NCBI GenBank assembly: GCA_016297695.1
Contig: JAEDGC010000001.1
Span: forward strand, 23,161 to 87,160
From: Bacilli bacterium
GTDB taxonomy: Bacteria; Bacillota_I; Bacilli_A; RF39; UBA660
Reading direction: 5' to 3'
DNA: 64,000 nt
A program made the translations under genes and the position numbers. Position 1 is the stretch's first letter; every line of letters begins with the position of its first letter. Positions 17,163 to 17,311 of the stretch are shown here, piece after piece. The notes beneath the pieces were generated by a model, which did not search any database, was not told the DNA's origin, and saw only the letters and a list, made by a program, of their open reading frames with translations.

Positions 17163-17311
17163 TGGTGTGTCCACTGGGGATCGAACCCAGACTCACGCCT
17201 TAATGGTGCTGAAAATAAGCTGTGAACTTATATTTTTTCCTATTAAGGAAAAAGTTTTTTCTATTAAACTATTTCAACAAGGGCGTTGTGATACCATTTC
17301 ACCATGGACAC
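17163..17311 (-). tRNA. tRNA-Lys (UUU) interrupted after U34 by a 75-nt tRNA-shaped insert
   Basis: Outer: GTGTCCA-TG-GTGA-AATGGTA-TCAC-A-ACGCC-CTT[insert]TTAA-GGCGT-GAGT-CTGGG-TTCGATC-CCCAG-TGGACAC-A-CCA. All four stems are Watson-Crick. Deleting the insert restores the loop CTTTTAA. Confidence 0.75.
17204..17278 (-). ncRNA. nested tRNA-shaped insert (full cloverleaf with CCA)
   Basis: GTTGAAA-TA-GTTT-AATAGAAA-AAAC-T-TTTTC-CTTAATA-GGAAA-AAAT-ATAAG-TTCACAG-CTTAT-TTTCAGC-A-CCA. The anticodon-like loop carries UAA with U at position 37. Confidence 0.6.

Follow-up and report, generated by a model that had tools for sequence, protein, structure and literature searches.

How could a tRNA gene that is interrupted in its anticodon loop by a second, tRNA-shaped sequence still give rise to a tRNA, and if it does not, why would such an arrangement exist? 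The question is raised by a 64,000-nucleotide (nt) stretch of contig JAEDGC010000001.1 (GenBank assembly GCA_016297695.1, assigned to a Bacilli bacterium; forward-strand positions 23,161 to 87,160), called the window here, which belongs to the large siphovirus-like genome of a phage, probably one of gut Bacillota. On its minus strand a tRNA-Lys(UUU) gene is split in the anticodon loop, exactly between U34 and U35, by a 75-nt tRNA-shaped insert, E1 (Table 1). Based on our analysis, E1 belongs to a family of elements that is widespread in phage tRNA genes and apparently undescribed. On balance we favor the reading that E1 is a member, without an open reading frame (ORF), of a mobile family of tRNA-shaped intervening sequences that would be excised by RNase P and a second nuclease, with a ligase resealing the outer tRNA.

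A tRNA-Lys gene split by a tRNA-shaped insert

The decisive evidence that the insert is real is an empty site in a syntenic relative, a 122.7-kb contig (ENA NODE_97, locus L009) reached via the protein encoded beside the window's tRNA array (14823..13369; 76% protein identity). The tRNA-Lys gene of L009 is uninterrupted, scores 65.9 bits with the Rfam tRNA model RF00005 and is identical to the spliced window copy at 72 of 74 bases. Aligning the two genes leaves one clean 75-nt gap between CTT and TTAA, with an identical upstream spacer and three substitutions downstream. As these flanks are nearly identical to the empty allele, E1 is a recent gain. In total, L009 has exact empty-site alleles for three of the window's inserts, those in tRNA-Lys, in a tRNA with the anticodon UAA and in tRNA-Glu. 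A first-pass annotation of the window had proposed that related phage genomes be searched for the same locus with or without the insert, and L009 provides the version without it.

The insertion point is unambiguous, since moving the 75-nt frame by one base either way fails to restore CTTTTAA. The minus strand of the locus agrees letter for letter with the transcription in the first-pass annotation, according to which the outer gene has four Watson-Crick stems and deletion of the insert recreates the loop CUUUUAA. Both claims hold: ARAGORN identifies the E1-deleted 74-nt sequence as tRNA-Lys(ttt), and the restored loop is seen in the spliced sequence as well as in the alignment to the empty site. 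The 3' boundary is equally exact (ACCA followed by TTAA), and excision in silico leaves a complete tRNA with a 7-nt anticodon loop. E1 begins directly with a terminal helix, GTTGAAA/TTTCAGC, in which seven of seven pairs form, one of them G.U. The helix encloses a D-like arm, a 5-bp stem with the 7-nt loop CUUAAUA and, directly 5' of its 3' strand, the T arm ATAAG-TTCACAG-CTTAT with G53-C61 and C56; a discriminator A and CCA complete the element.

In default mode ARAGORN calls E1 as a 75-nt 'tRNA-Leu(taa)' and RF00005 matches 17207-17278 with 47.1 bits (gathering score 29; E 6e-7), and both miss the outer tRNA-Lys gene. With introns allowed, ARAGORN reports a 149-nt gene with a 75-nt intron, which it sets at a slightly shifted point of the loop relative to the true boundary, so that the anticodon is misnamed. 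A check with tRNA models, as suggested in the first-pass annotation, thus finds the spliced outer gene and the insert accepted by ARAGORN and the insert by RF00005. De novo folding of the 149 nt to minimum free energy (MFE) gives a nested double cloverleaf of -41.2 kcal/mol (z = -3.7), equaled by 0 of 200 shuffles.

Table 1. Interrupted tRNA genes, their inserts and associated ORFs in the window (positions counted from its first nucleotide)
Feature	Position	Strand	Basis
Interrupted tRNA-Lys(UUU) gene, 149 nt with encoded CCA	17163..17311	-	ARAGORN with introns; uninterrupted orthologue L009:7512-7585
tRNA-Lys 5' exon: acceptor 5' strand, D arm, anticodon stem 5' strand, C32 U33 U34	17279..17311	-	Alignment to L009 empty site
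E1, 75-nt tRNA-shaped insert	17204..17278	-	ARAGORN, RF00005, MFE fold
tRNA-Lys 3' exon: U35 U36 A37 A38, anticodon stem 3' strand, variable loop, T arm, acceptor 3' strand, ACCA	17163..17203	-	Alignment to L009
Second interrupted tRNA, anticodon UAA, short variable arm	19491..19616	-	RF00005, ARAGORN on spliced sequence, own scan
50-nt insert of UAA tRNA, between U34 and A35	19533-19582	-	Empty site L009:5600-5675
Third interrupted tRNA, tRNA-Glu(UUC), loop CCTT/CAC (slash, insertion point)	15619..16556	-	blastn-short with L010 element; spliced sequence is tRNA-Glu (ARAGORN)
862-nt tRNA-like element in tRNA-Glu	15659-16520	-	5' E1-type D arm; 3' T arm and TTTTATC-A-CCA
HNH homing-endonuclease ORF in tRNA-Glu element	15683..16474	-	PHROG 10822, E 1.6e-40
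tRNA-Pro(UGG) with 666-nt insert (about 20085-20750)	20048..20784	-	ARAGORN -i; uninterrupted orthologue L009:5018-5091
PD-(D/E)XK endonuclease ORF in tRNA-Pro insert	20099-20719	-	Pfam PF11645, E 2.9e-23
Polynucleotide 5'-kinase-like gene, P-loop, 142 aa, within tRNA array	17737..18165	-	Pfam AAA_33, KTI12

The first-pass annotation had described the locus as a complete tRNA inside a tRNA. The nested anatomy stands, given the tRNA call and the double cloverleaf; the completeness does not. Although tRNA models accept E1 as a cloverleaf, its D loop, AAUAGAAA, lacks G18G19, its T loop UUCACAG has C58, its anticodon loop has a pyrimidine, U37, and its variable region of 4 nt leaves no room for the long variable arm of bacterial tRNA-Leu. 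The anticodon arm is also not conserved in homologues: it is a 5-bp stem with a GAAA loop in L010 and a UUCG hairpin in L013, is replaced by an ORF in the window's tRNA-Glu element and in elements of L016 and L090, and is absent from forms of 45-51 nt. In light of the missing tRNA invariants and the unconserved arm, E1 is better read as a tRNA-like mobile intervening sequence and is probably not a decoding tRNA. Going by sequence features, the family seems to be derived from a real phage tRNA, with U8-A9 kept and GG present in the D loop of some members.

The first-pass annotation also held that E1 was neither a group I intron nor a bulge-helix-bulge intron. Consistent with the first point, no Rfam group I model matches at E<=1 within positions 16600-20900 of the window, and 75 nt is too small; a group I intron in the 666-nt insert of tRNA-Pro was considered as well and gave no match. 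The bulge-helix-bulge consists of two 3-nt bulges at the splice sites with a 4-bp helix between them. Neither the MFE nor the centroid fold contains this motif, and in both the outer anticodon stem joins the inner acceptor helix via an asymmetric internal loop (2-3 nt versus 7-8 nt). On the features tested, no known intron class accommodates the family.

Relatives of E1 in the window and in other phage loci

E1 is not unique, as the window holds at least two further copies of the family. In the UAA tRNA the 50-nt insert (GCGAAAT...ATTTCGC-A-CCA) is a minihelix in which a 7-bp helix encloses a small hairpin and a T arm and is followed by A and CCA, and one RF00005 match of 123 nt (19616..19494; 43.2 bits) runs across both tRNA and insert. 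The site is empty in L009 and holds the same 50-nt insert in L016. The tRNA-Glu site is found in three states: empty in L009 (8858-8933), with 69 nt and no ORF in L010, and with 862 nt and an HNH gene in the window. The HNH ORF takes the place of the anticodon arm and ends with its stop codon just 5' of the T arm. Against Pfam HNH_3 it scores E 2.6e-5 and 24.2 bits, just under the curated cut-off of 24.8, and it is homologous to the HNH ORF of the L016 element, both ending in ...YSDEEWSKI. The unusual C33 loop CCTTCAC is common to the tRNA-Glu of the window, L009 and L010, and the window's exons differ from those of both relatives at five positions, one of which creates a C.A mismatch in the anticodon stem. 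E1 matches the window's tRNA-Glu element at 24 of 29 positions at the 5' end and 29 of 34 at the 3' end, and is of the same sequence family as this element and those in L010, L013 and L016. The likeliest history is that an ORF-less derivative left tRNA-Glu and settled in tRNA-Lys as E1. The insert of tRNA-Pro has a terminal 8-bp helix but neither CCA nor a clear T arm, making its membership in the family doubtful.

To survey other phages, 80 IMG/VR loci were collected with a profile of the window's neighbor protein. With introns allowed in ARAGORN and the insert required to have a terminal helix of at least 6 of 7 pairs and N plus CCA at its end, 24 matches were found; counted over 96 sources, 20 of 58 distinct intron calls end in this way. 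When each of the other 63 trinucleotides took the place of CCA, the mean was 0.16 and the maximum 2, versus 20 distinct for CCA. A second, independent scan made no use of intron calls. Its requirements were CCA, a T stem with 5/5 pairs, 6/7 or more pairs in the helix, an outer anticodon stem of 5 bp and recognition of the spliced sequence as a tRNA by ARAGORN. It identified 23 distinct elements, distributed over 20 of 87 loci, and the family comes to about 25 distinct elements in these 20 loci.

The interrupted genes encode tRNAs for Lys, Glu, Gln, Asn, Thr, Pro, Gly, Ile and Tyr, a class II tRNA-Leu(UAA), the short UAA tRNA and two CUA suppressors. Elements without an ORF are 45-87 nt long; those of 427-868 nt carry an HNH or GIY-YIG gene, and the ORFs have a common C-terminal tail and stop just 5' of the T arm. 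Three features alone are invariant across the roughly 25 elements: the terminal helix of 7 bp, the T arm and a 3' boundary formed by N-CCA. The position in the host loop varies (between 32 and 33, 34 and 35, or 35 and 36), and the element's own ends are constant, which supports the proposal of the first-pass annotation that the insert's tRNA-like ends (+1 and CCA) define the cut sites. When 22 elements are aligned, the acceptor and T stems, with 12 pairs in all, show 98.1% pairing, versus about 40% when slid. The value is inflated because elements were selected on pairing; neither the range of pair types nor the control with other trinucleotides is affected by this selection. Of the 12 pairs, 11 have undergone compensatory change. 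No element departs from G53-C61 or CCA, and the conservation of C56 and A57 is at least 90%. The structure of the element, helix and T arm, is under selection and kept by compensatory change. In close relatives one and the same site may be occupied or empty, and its element may have an ORF or lack it, as is the case for mobile introns. The inserts in the amber-suppressor tRNAs (L026 6864-6914 and L035 5525-5575) may be linked to the timing of stop-codon recoding. In the window itself, code 15 or code 4 brings no real gain in ORF coverage, and the standard code applies.

Other tRNA-like or unusual tRNA sequences occur in the window and in the related loci. Free-standing tRNA-like genes of the E1 family lie at L099 10279-10351, L102 348-420 (the same in L098 and L100) and L101 2416-2476; ARAGORN calls one of them 'tRNA-Arg(tct)', but its loop is CATCTTG, with A33 and U37. 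In the window, a weak tRNA-like gene directly after tRNA-Met (17511-17584, minus strand; RF00005 31.6 bits) has an E1-like D arm (TAGTTTAAC..AAAAC) and a 3' end other than CCA, and is kept in L009 (7243-7309; 32.4 bits). A possible long tRNA-like RNA, called by no tool, lies at about 19330-19463 (minus strand), with a 7-bp helix TCAACAG/CTGTTGA, a D arm GCGG..CGC, about 50 nt in between, a T arm CATGG-TGCAAAT-CCATG whose loop is of the TGCAA type found in the elements, and the 3' end T-TAA. The tRNA at 19651-19728 (minus strand) has an 8-nt anticodon loop, CTTAGTGA, and is called 'tRNA-???, tagt' by ARAGORN; as its L009 orthologue has the loop CTTAGAA (Leu UAG), it may be either a one-base-insertion pseudogene or a tRNA with a four-base anticodon. 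A different recurrent insert, a short hairpin followed by TAACAGCAA (33-64 nt, without CCA or T arm), occupies the anticodon loops of several tRNAs per array in L073 (6373-7093), L079 (9304-9690), L060 (9405-9775) and L063 (1001-1844). It is absent from the window's tRNAs and seems to be another undescribed class.

Beyond these loci, megablast finds no close DNA relative of the window among INPHARED phages, and distant blastn gives weak tRNA matches only. In IMG/VR and JGI metagenomes, exact and patterned searches detect neither the outer 5' half nor a narrowly drawn pattern of E1; one match in a Planctomycetota metagenome-assembled genome has no tRNA context and is due to chance. Six IMG/VR loci anchored on the kinase-like gene (L001-L006) have no comparable tRNA arrays. 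The portal protein of the window is 64% identical to that of a human faecal phage fragment and 36% to that of Phass-1, the nearest named phage, whose 26 tRNAs include none that are nested. Two phages were considered and rejected as cultured examples: the HNH gene of Gordonia phage GodonK is free-standing, and that of Enterococcus phage PEf771 (MN241318) lies in a tRNA-Lys loop without tRNA-like ends. In PEf771, a cultured Schiekvirus (L096 2907-3741), the 759-nt insert is almost entirely HNH ORF and has no ribozyme match; an intact tRNA-Lys follows, and the record annotates no tRNAs there.

Two neighboring features concern tRNA-like RNAs and their ends. The protein used to collect the loci (13369-14823, minus strand, beside the tRNA array) combines DUF2828 and DUF7788 and has a Ro60/TROVE plus von Willebrand factor A fold (AlphaFold pLDDT 89.6). 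By Foldseek the model resembles Ro autoantigen 1YVR (E 1e-9, TM 0.64), the Ro60 of Thermus phage phiLo (9L5Y) and Deinococcus Rsr. Since Ro60 proteins bind tRNA-like Y RNAs, free tRNA-like RNAs of the locus are candidate ligands. Putative ribozymes resembling that of hepatitis delta virus (HDV), known as theta ribozymes, are found at 19983-20047 and about 15030-15082 (both minus strand), and at about 789-835 in L010. The candidates begin immediately 3' of the discriminator of two tRNAs that lack CCA (Pro and Gln) and have a common core (AACCTCCTCGTGGTG...CTGG) with a covarying P1 (ACTAC/GTAGT versus TTTGC/GCAAA); Rfam RF02682 gives one of them only 21.5 bits (E 0.84). Theta ribozymes are a known class (Kienbeck et al. 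2024; PMC10879173), and the paper, which treats the same kind of phages, makes no mention of introns.

Proposed excision and resealing, and the competing readings

Under the favored reading, the insert in the transcript would fold as a tRNA-like module that projects out of the pre-tRNA-Lys anticodon loop. Host RNase P would cut at its 5' end (+1), leaving U34 with a 3'-OH, and a second endonuclease, possibly of the RNase Z type or a phage enzyme that leaves a 5'-OH, would cut directly after CCA. While the acceptor and anticodon stems hold the tRNA-Lys halves together, an anticodon-loop RNA ligase of the T4 Rnl1 type could join them into tRNA-Lys(UUU), freeing the 75-nt tRNA-like RNA. Two hydrolytic cuts would yield 3'-OH and 5'-phosphate ends, which such a ligase could use as they are; should the second cut leave a 5'-OH instead, the kinase of the array would add the phosphate. 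At the DNA level, homing endonucleases would spread the family. The freed CCA-ended RNA may be a ligand of the Ro60-like protein or a decoy for tRNA-targeting defenses. The broader proposition, that the elements form an unrecognized class of mobile 'tRNA-like introns' acting through pre-tRNA mimicry, RNase P, a cutter after CCA and an anticodon-loop ligase, is in our judgment plausible, if slightly short of probable.

Besides the features of the family given above, three kinds of evidence are consistent with this route. The first is anatomical: E1 has the 7-bp acceptor helix coaxial with a T arm and the 3' RCCA of an RNase P substrate, and in the YrlA RNA of M. smegmatis the 7-bp acceptor helix on the tRNA-like module is a major determinant and enough for RNase P (PMC4201824). 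The second is the kinase-like gene within the tRNA array, the product of which resembles polynucleotide kinases of RNA repair and is a candidate for the healing of ends. Its best solved relatives are the 171-aa chains 4JST and 4GP6 (deposited as 'Metallophosphoesterase'; E 1e-13), presumably the kinase domain of Clostridium thermocellum Pnkp, with the tRNA kinase PSTK matching as well; no phosphatase domain is attached, and the gene is conserved in L009, L012 and L016. A 77-aa HPr-like ORF (18162-18395, minus strand) precedes it; L009 and L012 keep the pair, and L016 has a match to each of the two. The third is the company the elements keep in related loci: a gene for a T4 Rnl1-family ligase is present at a distance of 10 kb or less in 7 of the 20 loci with elements versus 3 of the 67 others (Fisher p 0.001, uncorrected for relatedness and for about 150 tests), and the three ligase-bearing loci among the others have other interrupted tRNAs. 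The representative of the ligase cluster (L026) matches PF09511, and related gut phages are reportedly enriched in DRB0094-family RNA ligases (PMC10879173). The most enriched cluster near element arrays encodes a 177-aa protein (9/20 versus 1/67) and the second a 273-aa protein; neither matches Pfam, and their enrichment may reflect relatedness only.

Several points weigh against excision and resealing. We infer RNase P cleavage, the cut after CCA and the ligation of the exons from sequence, and the cut after CCA is the weak step of the model. We know of no Bacillota enzyme that cuts right after an encoded CCA. The RNase Z of B. subtilis is repressed by CCA, and that of T. maritima and some others do cut after it (PMC7479834). 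Pfam and PHROG scans of the ORFs found no RNA ligase in the window, and the ligase association in related loci is subject to the statistical limits given with it, as is the pairing value to its selection of elements. Because E1 was gained recently, the intact exons of the window copy are no proof of selection, the window's tRNA-Glu exons contain the C.A mismatch, and the existence of free-standing relatives means that the RNA itself may be functional.

Many of these points fit the main rival, selfish gene disruption, in which homing or recombination would land a cassette in the anticodon loop and kill the host tRNA gene, the inner RNA would be freed by RNase P and 3' trimming and the outer halves discarded, and the interrupted tRNA-Lys would be a freshly killed pseudogene. 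The recent gain of E1 between near-identical flanks, the C.A mismatch, the free-standing family members, the lack of a ligase among the window ORFs scanned and of a known Bacillota nuclease cutting after CCA all speak for it, and PEf771 offers a parallel in an HNH ORF that sits in a tRNA-Lys loop without structured ends, with an intact second tRNA-Lys adjoining. A DNA parasite, however, needs no helix, T arm and CCA kept at its borders by compensatory change. The exons of all of the roughly 25 elements rebuild a 7-nt loop and a full cloverleaf, a count to be read with the fact that the scans detect only elements whose exons still form a tRNA, so that decayed cases would escape. The outer tRNAs that carry the same old 47-nt insert in L013 and L019 differ in their acceptor and T stems by fully compensated changes. 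Moreover, inserts are found in CUA suppressors (L026, L035), which phages with recoded stop codons would need, and the window's interrupted tRNA-Lys keeps a canonical T loop whereas the empty allele of L009 does not. Taken together, disruption without splicing strikes us as unlikely, though it deserves serious consideration.

Two further readings are possible but less supported. The elements may be introns removed by other chemistry, in which a dedicated metal-independent endonuclease of phage or host would recognize the tRNA-like module and cut both junctions without RNase P, giving a 2',3'-cyclic phosphate and a 5'-OH, and the exons would be joined by RtcB or by a kinase, phosphatase and ligase. 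In its favor, the array includes the kinase-like gene, and no known enzyme accounts for the cut after CCA; metallophosphoesterases are also encoded near the arrays of relatives, and the same arrays use HDV-like ribozymes. HDV chemistry leaves cyclic-phosphate ends. Pfam and PHROG scans of window ORFs, many of which match no family, nonetheless show no homologue of the EndA/Sen splicing endonuclease or of RtcB, the folds lack bulge-helix-bulge geometry, and what is conserved in the elements are the determinants of RNase P (a 7-bp helix stacked on a T arm, NCCA), so that we consider this route improbable. That the locus encodes two working tRNAs, an inner one with the anticodon UAA that reads UUA after normal processing and a religated tRNA-Lys, is most improbable, for despite acceptance of the insert by ARAGORN and RF00005, its U33, 5-bp stem with 7-nt loop, discriminator A and CCA, and the apparent tRNA ancestry of a family with GG in some D loops and free-standing copies called as tRNAs, E1 departs from a decoding tRNA in its D loop, C58, U37 and variable region, and its homologues do not conserve an anticodon arm.

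Significance and comparison with known systems

If the elements are spliced as favored here, they would be a phage intron class distinct from group I, group II, spliceosomal and bulge-helix-bulge introns, with splice sites set by tRNA mimicry and removal dependent on RNase P and RNA repair enzymes. Phage Rnl1-type ligases and Pnk-type kinases would then have a routine job beyond the repair of host-inflicted tRNA damage, and the elements might provide a control point for the phage tRNA supply, including amber suppressors. In the window, tRNA finders missed the Lys, Glu and UAA tRNAs and called a false 'tRNA-Leu'; the same cause would explain missed and mis-called tRNAs in large gut phages. Even if unspliced, tRNA-like cassettes that are driven by homing endonucleases and target anticodon loops are undescribed as far as the literature search showed. 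In line with the first-pass annotation, whose author knew of no such nested arrangement, no description of tRNA-shaped inserts in tRNA genes was found in the full-text literature, many subscription papers lying outside the search. The system is small, a transcript of 149 nt, and directly testable in vitro.

The elements resemble group I introns, such as that of tRNA-Leu(UAA) between U34 and A35, in their anticodon-loop site, their presence/absence alleles and their optional homing-endonuclease genes. The same position of the short UAA tRNA is in fact occupied in L041 and L053 by apparent group I introns, judged by eye from their typical 3' ends. Group I introns, however, have a ribozyme core and a length of about 200 nt or more, whereas the elements have no such core (no match of the RF00028 type), are only 45-87 nt long when they lack an ORF, and fold as a tRNA-like minihelix ending in CCA. 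Lacking the core and being this small, they cannot self-splice by the group I route.

The tRNA introns of archaea and eukaryotes (EndA/Sen; RtcB or Trl1) are closer to the model proposed here, as they are small, protein-dependent, located near the anticodon loop between paired exons, and in need of a ligase. Archaeal bulge-helix-bulge introns can also host homing endonucleases. The elements differ in that they lack a bulge-helix-bulge, occur in a bacterial-type phage, have presumed cut sites set by the ends of the insert and vary in loop position. An embedded acceptor/T-arm module likewise directs tRNA-end enzymes in mitochondrial tRNA punctuation, plant mitochondrial t-elements, the MALAT1 mascRNA and YrlA; here the module lies inside another tRNA, and its flanks would need to be rejoined.

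A broken tRNA-Lys loop is resealed in T4, where PrrC cuts tRNA-Lys and Pnkp and Rnl1 repair it, as would be the case in the model. The break in T4 is host-inflicted damage rather than an encoded insert, and of the T4-like parts the window has the kinase-like gene, with no phosphatase or ligase gene detected, and related loci have Rnl1-family ligases. Finally, split and permuted tRNA genes (Nanoarchaeum, Cyanidioschyzon) have bulge-helix-bulge junctions, depend on the archaeal or eukaryal endonuclease and hold nothing tRNA-shaped between the halves. What they would have in common with the elements described here is that tRNA halves encoded separately or out of order are made into one molecule by joining at the level of RNA.

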